From positions 1 through 37,961 of the forward strand of contig CASFRQ010000178.1 of NCBI GenBank assembly GCA_949296785.1: 37,961 bases of DNA, read 5' to 3'. Numbering within the stretch: position 1 is the stretch's first letter; every line of letters starts with the position of its first letter. This DNA is from an uncultured Alphaproteobacteria bacterium. GTDB taxonomy: Bacteria > Pseudomonadota > Alphaproteobacteria > CASFRQ01 > SAAU01. Below are positions 10,910 through 36,797 of this stretch, one piece after another. The notes beneath the pieces were generated by a model. That model was not told the DNA's origin. It ran no database searches and saw only the letters and a program-made list of their open reading frames with translations. The translations under genes and the position numbers were made by a program.

Positions 10910-13900
10910 TTAAATGGGTTCATCCTGCTGCAAACGATAAAAAATATCCTCCAAAACAGGCTGTTGAAATCCTTTTATAAAGAGCAAATCATTTTCTTCA
11001 AGTTCTTTTTTTAAAATGGATATTGTTTTTTCGTCTCTTTCTTCCCAAAAACCTTTCCGATCTTCTTCCAGTCGGTCATAAACCACCCTCAACCCGCGGC
11101 CAACGCAAAACACTTTATCAAAAATGCCCGAATCCAGCAGAGAAAGAAAAGACAAGTGTAACTCCTCGCTCTTTTTTCCCAAATCAGGGACTTCCTTTAA
11201 CAAAAGCAAGCGTCTGCCTCCAACGGTTTTCTCATAAGCGCATCCCTCCAAATATCCTCTAAGCGATGACAAAGAATACACCGACAAACCGGCTGCCACT
11301 GTTACTTTCTTGCCGCCGACAGACAAATCCTGCCGTATCTCCTTTACTTTTGGGAAGGAGTAATCGGAAAGCGCCGCCAAAGCATCCTCCATGGAAAAGT
11401 TCAACGCCTGCGCCGCCGCCAAAGCCGCCAAAGCATCTAATGCCCAAATTCTTCCGCCTCTTTTTAAAGAAAGCTCCGCCTCTTTTCCCGACAAGGAAAC
11501 ACGTGCCGAATATCCGGATTTATTGTGCTTTTCGTCATTTTCCTCCTTGTACGCGAAAGAAACGTCCGCTGCCGCAGATATCGCCGATTTTTCGGCAGAT
11601 TCCGAAAAGTCGGTGTTTTCCTGTCCCGAAGTTTCCGCATCAACGAAAACTTCCGAACGAACAGGCATTTCTGAAGATTCAAAATTTTCCGGATTTTTTC
11701 CGGCTTCCGGCGTCTCCTTGCCTGCAAGCGCCTCTGCCGGATTTTCCTTTTTCTCAGAAATGCCCTGAGGCTCTTCAAAAGAAAGCAGACGAAAATCCGC
11801 CCTAGGATGTTCACCGAAAGAAACAAAACGGTAAACCCCCATCAGAGAAATCGTTTTTACAAAATATTCATAGAAAGGGTCATCTCTGTTCAAAACGATC
11901 GTTCCGCCCGGCTTGACACCGCTGACAGCCTCGCTTAAAATTCTGGCAATAGCTTCTTCCGATTCATAAATATTCAGTTTATAGGAGCCGGTATTTAAAA
12001 TCAAAGCGACTTCTGGCTGAATAAAACAGGACAGAGACCTCATCTCCTCCGCCCCCGTCAATGGCATTTCCAACAGGGAATAATTCGTCGGCGCCTGTAT
12101 TTGCGCGACGGAACGCATCACGGAAACAAACGATAAAACCCGGTCGGCCGAAGAATAAACGCTTCCGCCCGATCTTAAAATTTGCGCCAACATACTTTTC
12201 ACACTCGTTTTTCCGGCAACTCCGGATAAAGTGACGAACGCCGACTGAGTCAATGTCCGCGCATAGGAAGCCAGCTGTTCCAACGCCGTTTCGGGATCGT
12301 TGACGATAAACAGTTTTGTGCTGTCCTTCTGGGCTGTTGGGATTTTCCGTACCACACAGGCGGCTGCGCCGTTCTGAAACGCCTGTTCCAAAAAATCATG
12401 CCCGTCTTTAAAACCACCCTTCAACGCGAAAAACAAATCACCCGTTTTGACAGTCCGACTGTCTACGGATAAGCCGTAAACCTTAAAATCCTCCCCGTAA
12501 ACGCCCCCTAAAATCTCTTTCAGTTCCCGTCCGGAATATAAAGGTTTTTTTTCCAAAGCCAACAACGCCGTCTGAGCTTCTATCCTGTCGTTAAATGGTA
12601 AAGTTTTGCCGTTGACAATCTGGCCTTCCTCATGGCCTTTGCCGGCAATAATCAGAACATCGTCTTTTTCAAGTTCCTCTATAGCCTGAGCAATCGCCTT
12701 GCGTCGGTCTCCGATTTCCCGACCCAGCTGGCAAGCCGCCAATATTTCCTGACGAATGGTTTTGGCATCTTCAAAACGCGGATTATCGTCGGTAATAATA
12801 ATTTTATCCGCCAGTCTTTGAGCGATTTTTCCCATTAAAGGCCTTTTGGTTTTATCCCGATTGCCGCCGCAGCCGAAAACAACCCACAGCTTTCTGCGCG
12901 TCAAAGGACGCATTGTTTTTAAAACATTTTCCAAAGCGTCGGGTGTATGAGCGTAATCCACATAAACCTTCGCGCCATTTTTCTTTTGCCCGACAAATTC
13001 CAGACGCCCCGGCGGGCTTTTTAGGCGACTGACGGCTTTTAAAGCCCTCTCAGGTTCCAACCCGGAACCGATAACCAACCCCAACGCACATAAAAGGTTC
13101 ATTATCTGAAAATCGCCGCTGACAGGAAAATCCACGGTATGTTCCTTACCCAAAACTTTTAAAGTCAAGCGGTAACCGACATTCAGTCTCTCTTCTTTCT
13201 CCAACAGGATATCCTCTCCGTGACGGCCATAGGATAAAACCCTCAGTCCCTTATTTAAACAAATGTTCTTAAGTTTTTCATATTCCGCGATATCGGCATT
13301 CAAAACGGCAGTTCCGTCCGGCTTAATATGTTCTTCAAAAAGCTTTGCTTTTGCCGCGAAGTAGCTTTCCATTGTTTTATGATAGTCCAGATGCTCTTCC
13401 GTCAGATTGGTAAACGCCGCCGCATCAAACATCATACCGTCCAGCCTTCCCTGGTCCAGTCCGGCGCTGGAAGCCTCCAAAGCCGCATGCGTCACTCCGG
13501 CTGAAGCCAATTCCTCCAAATCACGGTAAATCTCAACGCTTTCCGGCGTTGTTAAAGAAGTTTCTTTTTTTATTTTATCCGAAAAGACGCCGATAGTTCC
13601 GAAACTGGCCCCTTCAATGCCACTTTCTTTCCAAATCTGACGTTCAAAGTACACGGTGGAAGTTTTGCCGTTTGTTCCCGTTACCGCCGTCAAAACGGAC
13701 GGTATATCCTTATAAAACAAAGAAGCGGCCCGCGCCATCGCGGCACGAATACCGCCTTCGGCTTTAATCACCGGAACCGGCAAACCGTCAATCCATTCCG
13801 GGCTCAAAACAGCAATCGCCCCGTTTTGAACCGCCTGCCGGCTGTAAGTCTCTCCTTTATCCTTATCCGACGATAAATTGACAAACAAAAAACCCGGCTC

Positions 13901-13993
13901 AACCTGTCTTGAATCGGCGGTAATGCCTTTCACATCAACCCAGGAAATTTCCCTGTCGGCTTGCAGCCCTTTGACAAGATTTTCCAGAAGCAT
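10910..13993 (-). CDS. murE/murF: Single-ORF fusion of MurE (UDP-MurNAc-L-Ala-D-Glu--meso-DAP ligase, about aa 1-482) with a divergent MurF-like Mur ligase domain (about aa 483-1027)
   Basis: MurE half: TGTNGKTS, FTNLTEEHLDYH, AAKAKLF, VDYAHTPDAL, FGCGGNRDKTKRP, TDDNPRFE (DNPR, DAP-type) and AGKGHE. MurF-like half: VDSRTVKTGDLFFALKGGFKDGHDF and the P-loop LSGVAGKTSVK, but many MurF motifs are altered and there is an acidic insert of about 87 aa. There is no stop between the halves. AAAGGAG SD lies before ATG 13993. Confidence 0.9.
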   Translation of the reverse strand: MLLENLVKGLQADREISWVDVKGITADSRQVEPGFLFVNLSSDKDKGETYSRQAVQNGAIAVLSPEWIDGLPVPVIKAEGGIRAAMARAASLFYKDIPSVLTAVTGTNGKTSTVYFERQIWKESGIEGASFGTIGVFSDKIKKETSLTTPESVEIYRDLEELASAGVTHAALEASSAGLDQGRLDGMMFDAAAFTNLTEEHLDYHKTMESYFAAKAKLFEEHIKPDGTAVLNADIAEYEKLKNICLNKGLRVLSYGRHGEDILLEKEERLNVGYRLTLKVLGKEHTVDFPVSGDFQIMNLLCALGLVIGSGLEPERALKAVSRLKSPPGRLEFVGQKKNGAKVYVDYAHTPDALENVLKTMRPLTRRKLWVVFGCGGNRDKTKRPLMGKIAQRLADKIIITDDNPRFEDAKTIRQEILAACQLGREIGDRRKAIAQAIEELEKDDVLIIAGKGHEEGQIVNGKTLPFNDRIEAQTALLALEKKPLYSGRELKEILGGVYGEDFKVYGLSVDSRTVKTGDLFFALKGGFKDGHDFLEQAFQNGAAACVVRKIPTAQKDSTKLFIVNDPETALEQLASYARTLTQSAFVTLSGVAGKTSVKSMLAQILRSGGSVYSSADRVLSFVSVMRSVAQIQAPTNYSLLEMPLTGAEEMRSLSCFIQPEVALILNTGSYKLNIYESEEAIARILSEAVSGVKPGGTIVLNRDDPFYEYFVKTISLMGVYRFVSFGEHPRADFRLLSFEEPQGISEKKENPAEALAGKETPEAGKNPENFESSEMPVRSEVFVDAETSGQENTDFSESAEKSAISAAADVSFAYKEENDEKHNKSGYSARVSLSGKEAELSLKRGGRIWALDALAALAAAQALNFSMEDALAALSDYSFPKVKEIRQDLSVGGKKVTVAAGLSVYSLSSLRGYLEGCAYEKTVGGRRLLLLKEVPDLGKKSEELHLSFLSLLDSGIFDKVFCVGRGLRVVYDRLEEDRKGFWEERDEKTISILKKELEENDLLFIKGFQQPVLEDIFYRLQQDEPI

Positions 13994-17633: not shown

Positions 17634-17744
17634 AACCGCGCCTTTTAACCTTTTCCCCGGTAATTTTCCCCTTTTGTTCCAATTTAAAAAACAGGCAAAA
17701 CAATCGGTGAAAAAATATTTTTCCGGGTCTTAAAATCCTTTTTA

Positions 17745-17790
17745 TGGGATAGCATGGAAAAATATGGGCGTCAAGTTTTTCATTATGGAA
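17745..17790 (+). promoter_or_regulatory. Candidate MraZ operator: TGG[G/A]N pentamers with 5-nt spacers
   Basis: TGGGA (17745) tagca TGGAA (17755) aaata TGGGC (17765) have an exact 10-bp period. A fourth TGGAA lies at 17786. The array is 112-157 nt upstream of the mraZ ATG. The motifs read on the strand opposite to mraZ. Confidence 0.4.
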
Positions 17791-17995
17791 GGAAACCCAA
17801 AATCAGAACTTTTTTTTATCCGTTAAAAAGAATGAAAAAACAAAATATTTTTTTTCAAAAACTTCTTAAAAATAAAAAATCAAGATGAAAAATTTTCCGC
17901 CTTATATGAAAGAAAACAAAAAATTTAATATTTTGCAAAATTCAAGATTATCATACAGTCTAACCATAGATAATCCCGGAATAAAAAATTCCCTC

Positions 17996-18025
17996 TTGAA
18001 CTTTAACGGGAAAAGTTTGTATAAA
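17996..18025 (+). promoter_or_regulatory. Candidate sigma-70 type promoter for the tandem paralog genes
   Basis: TTGAAC (17996-18001), an 18-nt spacer, then TATAAA (18020-18025). AAGGAGG follows at 18034-18040, with the ATG at 18049. Confidence 0.35.
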
Positions 18026-18048
18026 TAATCAATAAGGAGGAAAACATC

Positions 18049-18540
18049 ATGAGATTTTTAGCAATCATTTTTTCTGCCGTTTTACAACTTTGCTTTCTGA
18101 CCTCTCCGGTTTTGGCCCAAGAAAACAAGGAAAAACTGGCGCAGATACAGGAATTTAAGAACGATTTGGAAAGCTGCGAAAAAAGAATGTGGGATACGTT
18201 GCGTCAAAAATACGATGGTCTGTCACAGGACAATACGCCGGACAGGCAAATCGTCATAAATAAAATAACTTGTTACGAAGCCGTCGGGAATAAAGTCATT
18301 GATACCTTTTATTCCCATACCAATGAAGAGATGAAAAAGAAGTTTGACACACTTATTCGGGCTTTTTCCGTTTTTTACGGAGATTTATATGCTTACAATG
18401 CCGCCTGCTATAATCCTGATCCAGACAATTTTCAAATTTGCGGGAATATAGCTCTGGATTTTTCTGCTTCCGCTAGTACTGAGTTTGTAAAAAATACTGT
18501 TATAGAGATGTTGAACTATACGGAAAGTTTTTATAAATAA
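18049..18540 (+). CDS. Secreted small Cys-containing protein of unknown function, tandem paralog 1
   Basis: 163 aa. Strong AAGGAGG SD. Sec-type signal peptide ending VLA|QEN. Four Cys in the mature part (C43, C75, C120, C131). Its mature region is 88 percent identical to the next ORF. Confidence 0.8.
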   Translation: MRFLAIIFSAVLQLCFLTSPVLAQENKEKLAQIQEFKNDLESCEKRMWDTLRQKYDGLSQDNTPDRQIVINKITCYEAVGNKVIDTFYSHTNEEMKKKFDTLIRAFSVFYGDLYAYNAACYNPDPDNFQICGNIALDFSASASTEFVKNTVIEMLNYTESFYK

Positions 18541-18560
18541 TCAATAAGGAGGAATTTAAT

Positions 18561-19055
18561 ATGAAATTTTTAACTCTTATCGTTTTATCAACTCTATCGG
18601 TATTTTTTACGCCTTCCTTGGTTTTGGCCCAAGAAAACAAGGAAAAACTGGCGCAGATACAGGAATTTAAGAATGATTTGGAAAGCTGCGAAAAAAGAAC
18701 GTGGGATACTTTGCGTCAAAAATACGACGGTTTGTCTCAGGATAATACGCCGGACAGACAAATCGTCATAAATGAAATAACTTGTTACGAAATTGTCGGA
18801 AATAAAGTCATTGATACCTTTTATTCCCATACGAATGAAGAAATGAAAAAGAAGTTTGACACACTTATCCGGGCTTTTTCCGTTTTTTATGGAGAGTTAT
18901 ATGCTTATAATGCCGCCTGCTATAATCCAGGTCCTAAAAATCGCAAAATTTGCGGGAACATCGCTCTGGATTTTGCCACGGCCGCAGATGACAATTTTGT
19001 TAAAAATACTATCATGGATATGTTGAATTATACGGAAAGTTTTTATAAAGATTAA
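18561..19055 (+). CDS. Secreted small Cys-containing protein of unknown function, tandem paralog 2
   Basis: 164 aa. Same AAGGAGG SD context, signal peptide ending VLA|QEN, and the same four Cys positions as paralog 1. Confidence 0.8.
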   Translation: MKFLTLIVLSTLSVFFTPSLVLAQENKEKLAQIQEFKNDLESCEKRTWDTLRQKYDGLSQDNTPDRQIVINEITCYEIVGNKVIDTFYSHTNEEMKKKFDTLIRAFSVFYGELYAYNAACYNPGPKNRKICGNIALDFATAADDNFVKNTIMDMLNYTESFYKD

Positions 19056-19059
19056 AGAA

Positions 19060-19084
19060 AACGGCATCCTTTTTGGATGCCGTT
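19060..19084. terminator. Bidirectional hairpin terminator between the convergent genes
   Basis: AACGGCATCC (19060-19069), loop TTTTT, GGATGCCGTT (19075-19084): a 10-bp perfect stem with T-rich flanks on both strands. It lies between the stops at 19055 (+) and 19095 (-). Confidence 0.75.
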
Positions 19085-19094
19085 CCTTATTTAC

Positions 19095-20174
19095 TTAGTA
19101 AGAATAGGCGTCCACCCTGTTCATCCATCCGTCATGGAATTTCTGTTTTTCTGGATTTTCCTTTATTTTTTGAAGGAAATATTCTTTTGTTGCCTGTTTA
19201 TATTTTTCTATAATTTCCAACATTTCCTCTTCGGTCTTATTTTCCAAAGCTTTCATGGTTGCGGGGCCTATAATCGTCCCGGGCTTGATTCCCAGAATAG
19301 TATGAAGCCTTTGTATCGCAGCCACATGATGGTTGATTGCCATACTAAGGACAAGGCTGGCCAATCGTTCATCTTTAATATTATCTATATGAAAATATTT
19401 ATAAAAATCATTATAAAAAATCAGATCCGCCCGGTCATGCGTCATATTTTTAATATCTTCATTCGGGTACCAGCGTTTTGAAATTCCCATATTCGTTTCT
19501 TTTCCAGGATCTTCAGGGATATTTACATATCCCCCTTCCGCCTCCCTGATAGGAGGCATTATCCTGTCAAATTTTTCATCATCCATCCGGTCATAAACCA
19601 TTCCCGGCTTCATGCCTTGCCCATATTTTTGATAATACTCTCTCTTATGCAAGAGCTCAGAAGGTATTGGAACGGGAAGAGGAATAACTTTCTTGGGCGG
19701 AGGAACAGGCAAAGGAATCTCTTTTGCGCCAAAGGGTCCATACTCAAAAAATCTTATCTTTTTCTGAGGGTTATCGGAAAGCTCCTTTTTCAACATATCA
19801 TTTGCTTTATCCTCATAGCGGGCATTGTTTTCAGACAGATATAAATTCTCTCCGTTAGGAAAACCTGTAAACGCCCCCGGATAATTCGTGTTTTCTTTTT
19901 GTAAATTCGTATTCATTCCCTGTATTTTATTGGGATAAAACTGAAAAAGCAAGTCCTTCGTCAAGGAGGCAGTTGTTGGTTCCATTTTAATAAAATTGAA
20001 AGAATTAGGTTCTAAAGATTTCAATATTTCCTTATTAAAATTTTTTTTTAATTCAATTCTCAGATCCGAATCTCCCGGTTCTATTTTATAGAATTGAGCT
20101 TCTCCCAAACCGGCTTCGTCAAACAAAGCCTCCAAAACCTCTCTTGTCGTCATATCTTTTGTTAAGTTTACCAT
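19095..20174 (-). CDS. GH108-type N-acetylmuramidase with a PG_binding_3-like C-terminus, fused to an unrecognised N-terminal region of about 150 aa and a Pro-rich linker; no signal peptide
   Basis: The C-terminal half has REAEGGYVNIPEDPGKETNMGIS (the EGGY...DPGG.T..GI signature of GH108 lysozymes), then IIGPATMKAL and HDGWMNRV (the peptidoglycan-binding tail typical of this family). I prefer ATG 20174 (MVNLTKD, AGGAG 7 nt upstream) over the track start at 20261. Confidence 0.8.
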   Translation of the reverse strand: MVNLTKDMTTREVLEALFDEAGLGEAQFYKIEPGDSDLRIELKKNFNKEILKSLEPNSFNFIKMEPTTASLTKDLLFQFYPNKIQGMNTNLQKENTNYPGAFTGFPNGENLYLSENNARYEDKANDMLKKELSDNPQKKIRFFEYGPFGAKEIPLPVPPPKKVIPLPVPIPSELLHKREYYQKYGQGMKPGMVYDRMDDEKFDRIMPPIREAEGGYVNIPEDPGKETNMGISKRWYPNEDIKNMTHDRADLIFYNDFYKYFHIDNIKDERLASLVLSMAINHHVAAIQRLHTILGIKPGTIIGPATMKALENKTEEEMLEIIEKYKQATKEYFLQKIKENPEKQKFHDGWMNRVDAYSY

Positions 20175-20304
20175 AATTTTTCTCCTTCTATTTAAAATAA
20201 AAAATCTTAACAAGAATAAAAATATCCATATTTCAAGCATAATATTCTTATAAAGAATCATTTAACGAAGCCTTATTCATTTCCTATAAAGACACAAAAG
20301 AAAA

Positions 20305-20323
20305 CGCCGGTAAAATACCGGCG
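20305..20323 (-). terminator. Rho-independent terminator downstream of lplT-aas
   Basis: CGCCGGTA / TACCGGCG 8-bp stem with a 3-nt loop. On the minus strand it is followed by TTTTCTTTTGT. Confidence 0.65.
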
Positions 20324-20405
20324 CTTTTTCCTTCTTATTTTATTCTTTTATAAACTTTTTATCTCTTCAAAGCTTTTTAAAGTCATCGGAACGCAATCTC
20401 CCTCG

Positions 20406-32688: not shown

Positions 32689-36797
<4,109 letters not shown>

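Follow-up and report, generated by a model that had tools for sequence, protein, structure and literature searches.

Peptidoglycan-degrading toxins with periplasmic immunity proteins are already known among the effectors of type VI secretion systems (T6SS), among those of the Xanthomonadales type IV secretion systems (X-T4SS) and in pesticin. Pesticin of Yersinia pestis is a signal-less protein of 357 amino acids in which an N-terminal uptake part of ~165 residues precedes a C-terminal muramidase of ~190 residues; it works by a T4-lysozyme-type Glu/Asp/Thr mechanism, its domains are exchangeable, and Pim is its periplasmic immunity protein (PMC3390615). We analysed a stretch of 37,961 nucleotides (the window; contig CASFRQ010000178.1 of assembly GCA_949296785.1) from an uncultured alphaproteobacterium, and in it a gene for a signal-less muramidase together with two convergent genes for exported partner proteins. 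Pesticin with Pim is the closest functional analogue of this locus, and SagA of Brucella abortus and TtsA of Salmonella Typhi are the closest structural relatives. On balance, the locus probably encodes a polymorphic antibacterial muramidase and its periplasmic immunity, laid out like pesticin and Pim. The C-terminal half, a GH108 domain followed by a PG_binding_3 domain, would hydrolyse a target cell's peptidoglycan from the periplasm. The N-terminal ~170 residues would form a delivery module, built of a conserved tag of ~55 residues and a swappable disorder-like linker, and the two exported four-cysteine helical proteins would confer periplasmic immunity by blocking the enzyme in the producer and its kin. 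Candidate routes of delivery would be release followed by receptor-mediated import, as for a bacteriocin, or a type IV secretion system (T4SS) that is conserved in the family. The parts of the locus are as follows.

19095-20174, minus strand: muramidase coding sequence, 359 amino acids, signal-less (coding 19098-20174; stop codon TAA 19095-19097)
19995-20174, minus strand: N-terminal tag, residues 1-60, two short helices predicted (six-copy alignment A2)
19722-19994, minus strand: variable disorder-like linker, residues 61-151, rich in Pro, Asn, Lys and Leu; predicted local distance difference test (pLDDT) 23-39 in AlphaFold2 (AF2)
19656-19721, minus strand: Pro-rich linker EIPLPVPPPKKVIPLPVPIPSE with IPLPVP duplicated, residues 152-173
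19578-19655, minus strand: pre-domain segment with Y-x-K-Y-G-x-G, residues 174-199, conserved and outside the Pfam model
19320-19577, minus strand: GH108 catalytic domain, residues 200-285, from Pfam, alignment, PDB sequence search and Foldseek
19536-19538, 19509-19511 and 19494-19496, minus strand: catalytic residues E213, D222 and T227, respectively
19113-19307, minus strand: PG_binding_3 domain, residues 290-354, from Pfam; pLDDT 86-93
18561-19055, plus strand: proximal partner, 164 amino acids, signal peptide (VLA–QE), four invariant Cys, helical-bundle model
18049-18540, plus strand: distal partner paralogue, 163 amino acids, 82% identical to the proximal one, signal peptide, four invariant Cys

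Both domains of the enzyme half were recognized by Pfam: Glyco_hydro_108 (PF05838) at residues 209-282 (1.9e-15, 57.6 bits against a cut-off of 21.2) and PG_binding_3 (PF09374) at residues 290-354 (6.8e-8, 33.0 bits against a cut-off of 24.6). The sole other Pfam match of the protein at E ≤ 1 was a sub-threshold one to DbpA. The catalytic set E213-x8-D222-x4-T227 is unchanged in eight homologues (alignment A1) and corresponds to Glu17, Asp26 and Thr31, the catalytic residues of SagA (PMC8334348). AF2 modelled this half confidently, and Foldseek matched it with probability 1.0 to 2IKB, 7DNP (SagA), 2NR7, 6V3Z and 6V40 (TtsA) at target TM-scores of 0.58-0.72; the PDB sequence and fold searches together returned NMB1012, SagA (7DNP), 2NR7, Sen1395 and TtsA. 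Ahead of the catalytic domain, Y181, K183, Y184, G185 and G187 of the pre-domain segment are invariant and mark a GH108 subfamily. Because both domains exceed their gathering thresholds and the three catalytic residues are invariant, the muramidase looks intact, and it is predicted to cut peptidoglycan. An initial annotation made from the letters had read this half as a complete GH108 lysozyme with a peptidoglycan-binding tail; that description was confirmed for both domains and for the fold, and the context of the catalytic Glu is retained on alignment.

The frame is open throughout 19095-20261 on the minus strand. We assigned the start to the ATG at 20174 because a ribosome-binding site (AGGAGA) lies 6 nucleotides 5′ of it, because the alignments place the start of all homologues and of the tag paralogues at this position (MVNLTK), and because the upstream frame is not maintained in L008, a strain of 92% identity. 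A longer open reading frame (ORF) from the ATG at 20261, which would add a hydrophobic leader, was rejected, as an in-frame TAG and an insertion interrupt it in L008. The resulting protein has an acidic N terminus, a highest 19-residue Kyte–Doolittle mean of 1.0 with no transmembrane (TM) segment, and no cysteine at all, so that a lipobox is impossible. This agrees with the first reading of the gene as having no signal, lipobox or TM segment; all of our signal-peptide and TM calls were made by hydropathy only and are crude.

No family in Pfam, NCBIfam, PHROG or PDB matched residues 1-190. When modelled by AF2 from an eight-sequence alignment, residues 1-173 had pLDDT values below 50, with only short helices at residues 10-20 and 36-50; the region is thus modelled as disordered, as would be expected of a bacteriocin-type translocation region. 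A folded domain at residues 1-150 was rejected on these values and because Foldseek returned GH108 structures only, and no well-known domain of housekeeping proteins was found there. What had been described as a module of 150 residues therefore resolves into a conserved tag of ~55 residues, a swappable disorder-like linker and a Pro-rich repeat. The accompanying statement that the first ~150 residues match nothing holds for public families, but not for the genome itself, in which five other ORFs match the first ~55 residues. The linker with its duplicated IPLPVP is real and runs from 19656 to 19721, one codon longer than the 19659-19721 originally given. The duplication is lineage-specific, since PLPVPIPSE occurs only once in P0004, a homologue of 60% identity.

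The tag has the consensus TRExL...DSxxRxxLKxxxN over ~55 residues. By six-frame translation of the window's own genome, we located it at the start of five further frames, two on contig C133 and one each on C134, C107 and C80. These copies are 35-39% identical to that of the window, and 11 positions are invariant in all six (T10, R11, E12, L14, D35, S36, R39, L42, K43, N47 and K52). A profile built from three copies recovered the other three at E values of 8e-16, 3e-11 and 2e-10 among 30,668 own-genome fragments. When 1.84 billion representative proteins were searched exhaustively with a profile, six carried the tag, each from within its first four residues; all six are of this lineage and seem to correspond, in closely related strains, to the tagged genes of the own genome. 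A word-indexed search with residues 1-60 recovered close relatives only, and the tag was not found in 40 related genomes, which included species of the same genus and of the same family. Two distant homologues (P0006 and P0007) look alike by eye in this region, and we rejected them as tag carriers because the A2 profile gives them negative bit scores. A double-glycine leader served by a C39 exporter was likewise rejected: the tag alignment has no conserved GG, and no C39 was found in the genome. The source genome is a metagenome-assembled genome (MAG) of 1.58 Mb in 234 contigs that is 80% complete, and absences from it are therefore provisional. We infer that the tag would serve export, import or both.

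The sequences that follow the tag are unrelated among its six carriers, one of which is a short repeat protein. The products of C134 and C107 are 92% identical over their first 60 residues and ~30% afterwards, and both contain EGDYDHVYIDTMCNPTIG, with the E-x8-D-x5-T catalytic spacing of T4 lysozyme (PMC8334348). We did not accept a GH24 identity for the pair, as there is the motif alone, with no Pfam, PDB or PHROG match, and the Glu position is interrupted in C107. In both genes (C134, L004:743-830; C107, L005:1000-1087, minus strand), no in-frame start precedes ATTRE and an ATG is followed directly by a stop codon (ATGTGAC/ATGTAAC); if one T is skipped, the product begins M-(D/N)-A-T-T-R-E, in agreement with the other tags. 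Two paralogues with only ~30% identity further on have this anomaly in common, which suggests a shared frameshift, a +1 shift at the start–stop or gene conversion of the 5′ end. One of the two tagged ORFs of C133 (C133_2255; L003:2255-2761, minus strand) has weak matches to YkuD (0.0015) and Tlde1 (0.024). Its identification as Tlde1 was rejected, since the matches are sub-threshold and the ORF has no start codon and seems to be cut short. Its ATG lies one base out of frame (GGAGGTGAAAAAATGAAGAG), it ends ahead of the expected catalytic Cys motif, it is called as fragments of 81-94 amino acids in other strains, and it is probably a pseudogene. The tagged gene of C80 is split; its homologue P0013 from another sample is intact, with 284 amino acids and a Gly-rich C-terminal part, which in the own genome forms a separate ORF followed by a multi-TM ORF of 300 amino acids. 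C134 is flanked by two paralogous signal-peptide ORFs, and other tagged genes likewise adjoin signal-peptide or multi-TM ORFs. Taken together, these carriers suggest that a single tag heads a range of different proteins with a putative action on the wall or envelope, and that each is encoded beside an exported or membrane protein.

At the window locus, the neighbours are the two partner genes, which converge on the muramidase gene. AF2 modelled the partner as a helical bundle (pLDDT 80). Searches with the partners found no Pfam or NCBIfam match and nothing at E ≤ 10 with a PDB sequence profile; the best Foldseek match of the fold had an E value of 0.75, and the DUF1311 entry 3GI7 one of 3.1. 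The two paralogues differ mostly in the C120-C131 loop and in the next helix. The partners are probably antidotes of the muramidase, which they would bind and inhibit. We note that the C120-C131 loops (18406-18441 and 18918-18953) occur in at least three allele types (PDPDNFQIC, PGPKNRKIC and PDPNPSKKRFC), which are combined with different following helices and shuffled between the proximal and distal positions across strains. Co-variation of the catalytic-domain allele with the partner loop allele was considered and rejected, as the three strains examined gave no clean pairing. Three further features define the setting of the genes.

19058-19086, readable on both strands: terminator-like hairpin between the convergent muramidase and partner genes
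20301-20327, minus strand: terminator-like hairpin after aas, upstream of the muramidase gene
17634-20405: low-GC island between mraZ and aas, 32-40% GC against 44-50% in the flanks

The muramidase gene had been described as standing alone between terminators. The hairpins are present on both sides, and the two convergent partner genes mean that it is not functionally alone.

The muramidase alleles are mosaic. Between the window and L008, synonymous divergence (pS) is 0.14 over residues 1-36, with no amino-acid change, and ~0.75 over residues 37-150, where blastn finds no DNA-level match; it then falls to 0.24 over residues 151-199, rises to 0.67 over the catalytic domain (residues 200-285) and is 0.36 over residues 286-359. 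Within the stretch that was swapped between the strains (residues 37-150), identity to P0004 is 38% for residues 37-60 and 27% for residues 61-150. A further homologue, P0003, is identical to the window protein over its N-terminal 150 residues and only 59% identical in the catalytic domain, which defines two allele types. At the aas–mraZ site of G001, a sister species of the same genus, a 3′ GH108 remnant of 59 amino acids lies with a single partner gene, which is intact, and a different cassette is inserted upstream. This cassette (contig C9 of G001; L023:7613-10098) comprises an ORF of 153 amino acids, a protein of 300 amino acids with a Tlde1-like FDGQNLRLY stretch and a multi-TM ORF. A GH108 protein encoded in another MAG has its N terminus in common with the cassette protein (blastp 5e-13), a second, independent case of N-module sharing. 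Low GC content, mosaic alleles and a remnant with a retained partner would be the habits of toxin–immunity loci and not those of a housekeeping enzyme.

Some of these observations could also describe an accessory gene in decay that has no current function, with the likeness among tags a legacy of gene conversion or of a recent duplication and not of a shared role. Among the six tagged ORFs, three have no in-frame start, and the C80 gene is in pieces where P0013 is whole. In strain L058 the enzyme gene is frameshifted and the adjacent partner broken, and G001 keeps the remnant only. The window copy, however, is intact, with a ribosome-binding site, its own terminators and an invariant catalytic triad. 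The ratio of non-synonymous to synonymous divergence (pN/pS) is 0.19 in the catalytic and 0.15 in the binding domain, and the first 36 codons show no non-synonymous change against three synonymous ones. The tag copies have diverged to 35-39% identity and still share 11 invariant positions, which indicates constraint at the protein level. We consider decay without function very improbable for the window gene, and return to a toxin with its immunity as the reading that we prefer.

Pairing of enzyme and partner extends beyond the window. L008, the strain that encodes P0004, has the same three-gene layout adjoining mraZ. P0007, a GH108 protein of 41% identity, is encoded beside dnaE, and a homologous partner of 183 amino acids overlaps its gene tail-to-tail. 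Scanning one genome per species for the pattern Y-x-K-Y-G-x-G yielded 19 loci, every one of which belongs to an uncultured alphaproteobacterium from the human gut, the rumen or a similar source. A signal-less GH108 protein with a variable N-extension and a convergent signal-peptide ORF of 130-190 amino acids with 4-7 Cys was present at 14 of the 17 loci that could be read, and the partner profile matched 7 of those 14 convergent ORFs. The combination of N-extension, GH108 and PG_binding_3 is thus common in MAGs of gut Alphaproteobacteria, which answers in part the question of whether the architecture is widespread and already annotated: no source names the proteins. The N-extensions of this GH108 subfamily appear highly interchangeable. 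In two of the homologues they carry a MuF-like motif (...HPNCRC in L056:4587-5495 and ...DYNCRC in L039:4557-5495), and in L047 a PG_binding_1-like stretch takes the place of this motif.

The MuF-like motif in homologues of other MAGs is one of several matches that lead towards phage, and the gene might on that account be a relic endolysin of phage origin, or a toxin carried in phage or tailocin particles in the manner of MuF-type proteins. PHROG 315, an endolysin family, matches residues 192-356 at 5e-33; there is a weak match to a holin-associated N-acetylmuramidase of NCBIfam (NF040573), which at 47.7 bits falls far under the cut-off of 240; and one MuF-domain toxin-like ORF exists in the own genome. 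The last lies on a 2.4-kb contig (C117:726-1945, L057) as an ORF of 326 amino acids with a Phage_Mu_F match of 46 bits and a C-terminal part without family, followed by an ORF of 87 amino acids; the two look like a MuF-type polymorphic toxin and its immunity gene. The window protein itself (P0001) has no match to Phage_Mu_F (PF04233, E ≤ 1), and without a Cys it cannot have an NCRC motif. Its island contains no holin, spanin, other lysis gene or phage structural gene, and no small TM ORF as a holin candidate, just the two partner genes. Neither an HK97 capsid nor gp25 was found in the 80%-complete genome, and in several strains and species the locus keeps the same chromosomal position, between aas and mraZ. 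A phage origin or carriage is quite unlikely on this evidence, and the earlier suggestion of a lysin derived from a phage or gene transfer agent is weakened by the lack of a holin or phage genes in the island.

A search of the genome for systems that could deliver the enzyme, as the initial annotation had proposed, found T4SS genes (VirB4, three VirB2 and two VirD4-like genes) and an R64-like type IVb pilus cluster, and no T6SS, flagellar or HK97 capsid marker. T6SS, extracellular contractile injection systems and other contractile systems were rejected for want of TssC or gp25, and flagellar export for want of FlhA. On contig C113 (L007:2051-16603), the pilus cluster, which includes a PilQ-like ATPase, PilO, a secretin and a TcpQ/PilL-like gene, adjoins three tandem VirB2-like genes and VirB4. 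Two relatives with genomes of 1.2 Mb, G001 and G002, both without the tag, also keep VirB4 and two VirD4-like genes; GH108 is reduced to the remnant of 59 amino acids in G001 and is absent from G002. Because T4SS markers remain in these genomes without a working muramidase, the enzyme is clearly not required for the T4SS. Delivery by the T4SS is neither supported nor excluded. The small genomes of these relatives would be in keeping with gut lineages of reduced genome size, such as Rs-D84 (PMC12306168).

The same genes bear on the possibility that the muramidase is directed at its own cell, as a machine-associated autolysin with a periplasmic regulator. It would then open the bacterium's own peptidoglycan for the T4SS or the type IVb pilus, and the four-cysteine proteins would restrain it. 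An analogous pair has been proposed in Brucella, in which SagA would make way through the peptidoglycan for the T4SS and the exported PhiA would modulate it (PMC8334348). SagA (7DNP) and TtsA are among the closest solved structures, and the window's genome does hold three VirB2, VirB4, two VirD4-like and the R64-like pilus genes. Their retention in G001 and G002, where GH108 is a remnant or absent, argues against this role, as does the frameshifted copy in L058. SagA has a C-terminal TM anchor and the window protein has none; the partner is a helical bundle, whereas PhiA is a β-barrel of the MliC/PliC type. An autolysin also leaves unexplained the tag on unrelated ORFs, the mosaic alleles and the partner kept by a dead enzyme gene. 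We regard it as unlikely, and the notion of a machinery-associated lytic enzyme has lost ground, given that the T4SS is equally present in relatives without tag and enzyme.

For the antibacterial reading, the observations closest to a secreted effector are the tag on toxin-like ORFs, the convergent exported partners, the remnant, the mosaic alleles and the low-GC island; to that extent the suggestion of a cargo effector of a secretion system gained support, but no system could be linked to it. A more specific version holds that the ~55-residue tag is the recognition signal of an undescribed delivery route in small-genome gut Alphaproteobacteria, with the T4SS, its two VirD4-like proteins and the type IVb pilus as candidate, that injects wall-cutting enzymes into neighbouring cells, and that the four-cysteine proteins are a new family of muramidase immunity proteins. 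We hold this to be doubtful. Were it true, nutritionally dependent bacteria would be injecting such enzymes for competition or in an epibiotic, prey-exploiting lifestyle.

Several points weigh against a polymorphic toxin with periplasmic immunity. Activity, binding and export are predictions from sequence. No secretion or import machinery is tied to the tag, and the T4SS does not co-vary with it; TssC, gp25/TssE, FlhA and a C39 ABC marker were not found in the 80%-complete genome. For uptake in the manner of a bacteriocin, the N terminus has no recognizable TonB box, and neither a TonB-dependent receptor nor an ExbBD-like pair turned up in a crude scan of the producer. For the partners, no match was found among the known families of lysozyme inhibitors or immunity proteins (PliC/MliC, LprI/DUF1311 and others), and a convergent layout is unusual for effector–immunity pairs of secretion systems. 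As to the other tagged ORFs, half of the six have no in-frame start codon, and their C-terminal domains are indicated only by weak matches or a motif, with no support from hidden Markov models. With the frameshifted enzyme gene and broken partner of L058 added, part of the tagged family may be decaying.

A GH108 muramidase in a toxin role, the N-terminal tag and the four-Cys helical partner family were not described in the literature that we searched. The pairing recurs in many uncultured alphaproteobacterial MAGs of gut and rumen with very small genomes, and it may be a main competitive or host-exploiting tool of this poorly understood group. The tag offers a handle on the delivery route, and the natural allele variants a system in which to study the specificity of muramidase inhibition. 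Elsewhere in the window, LigA (34362-36797) has an N-terminal extension of ~200 amino acids before its adenylation domain, with the Pfam match beginning at residue 198, and an ORF of 1027 amino acids lies within the dcw cluster (10910-13993).

Compared with the systems described so far, the locus combines features of several. With SagA and TtsA (6V40), the enzyme shares the GH108-type fold, the catalytic triad and a peptidoglycan-binding C-terminal bundle, and with SagA in particular the company of an exported protein, which there has been proposed as a modulator (PMC8334348). The C-terminal TM anchor and the MliC-like partner of SagA are both missing here, and the window enzyme is dispensable in relatives that keep their T4SS; neither SagA nor TtsA has an N-terminal extension. 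TtsA depends on a holin, and no holin lies beside the muramidase in the island. The X-T4SS effectors and their immunity proteins (X-Tfe/X-Tfi) resemble the locus as signal-less peptidoglycan hydrolases with periplasmic immunity proteins in a T4SS-bearing bacterium. X-Tfes bear a C-terminal XVIPCD signal, whereas the shared module here is N-terminal, Pfam gives nothing at E ≤ 1 beyond GH108, PG_binding_3 and the sub-threshold DbpA match, and the T4SS does not co-vary with the tag.

Polymorphic toxin systems, which include the Rhs, CdiA-CT, MafB, LXG and MuF families, offer a second set of likenesses: a common N-terminal module on differing C termini, neighbouring partner genes, a partner kept beside a displaced 3′ remnant, breakpoints at module borders and low-GC islands. 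The tag differs in matching no known trafficking domain, the proteins are short (about 110-360 amino acids), and the putative immunity genes are convergent instead of downstream on the same strand. The plan proposed for the window protein also resembles that of the colicins, which have an N-terminal translocation region, a C-terminal killing domain, no signal peptide and periplasmic immunity. Pesticin and Pim differ from the locus in three respects. The activity domain here is GH108 with PG_binding_3 and not the T4-lysozyme-like domain of pesticin; the N-terminal part is predicted to be disordered, with neither a recognizable TonB box nor a folded receptor-binding domain; and the partners are four-Cys helical proteins, unrelated to Pim and present in two copies. 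In the remaining respects, pesticin and the proposed plan of the window protein match closely: 357 and 359 amino acids, no signal peptide, an N-terminal part for delivery (putative here) ahead of a C-terminal muramidase with a Glu/Asp/Thr set of the T4-lysozyme type, a dedicated immunity protein in the periplasm (probable here) and exchange of domains.

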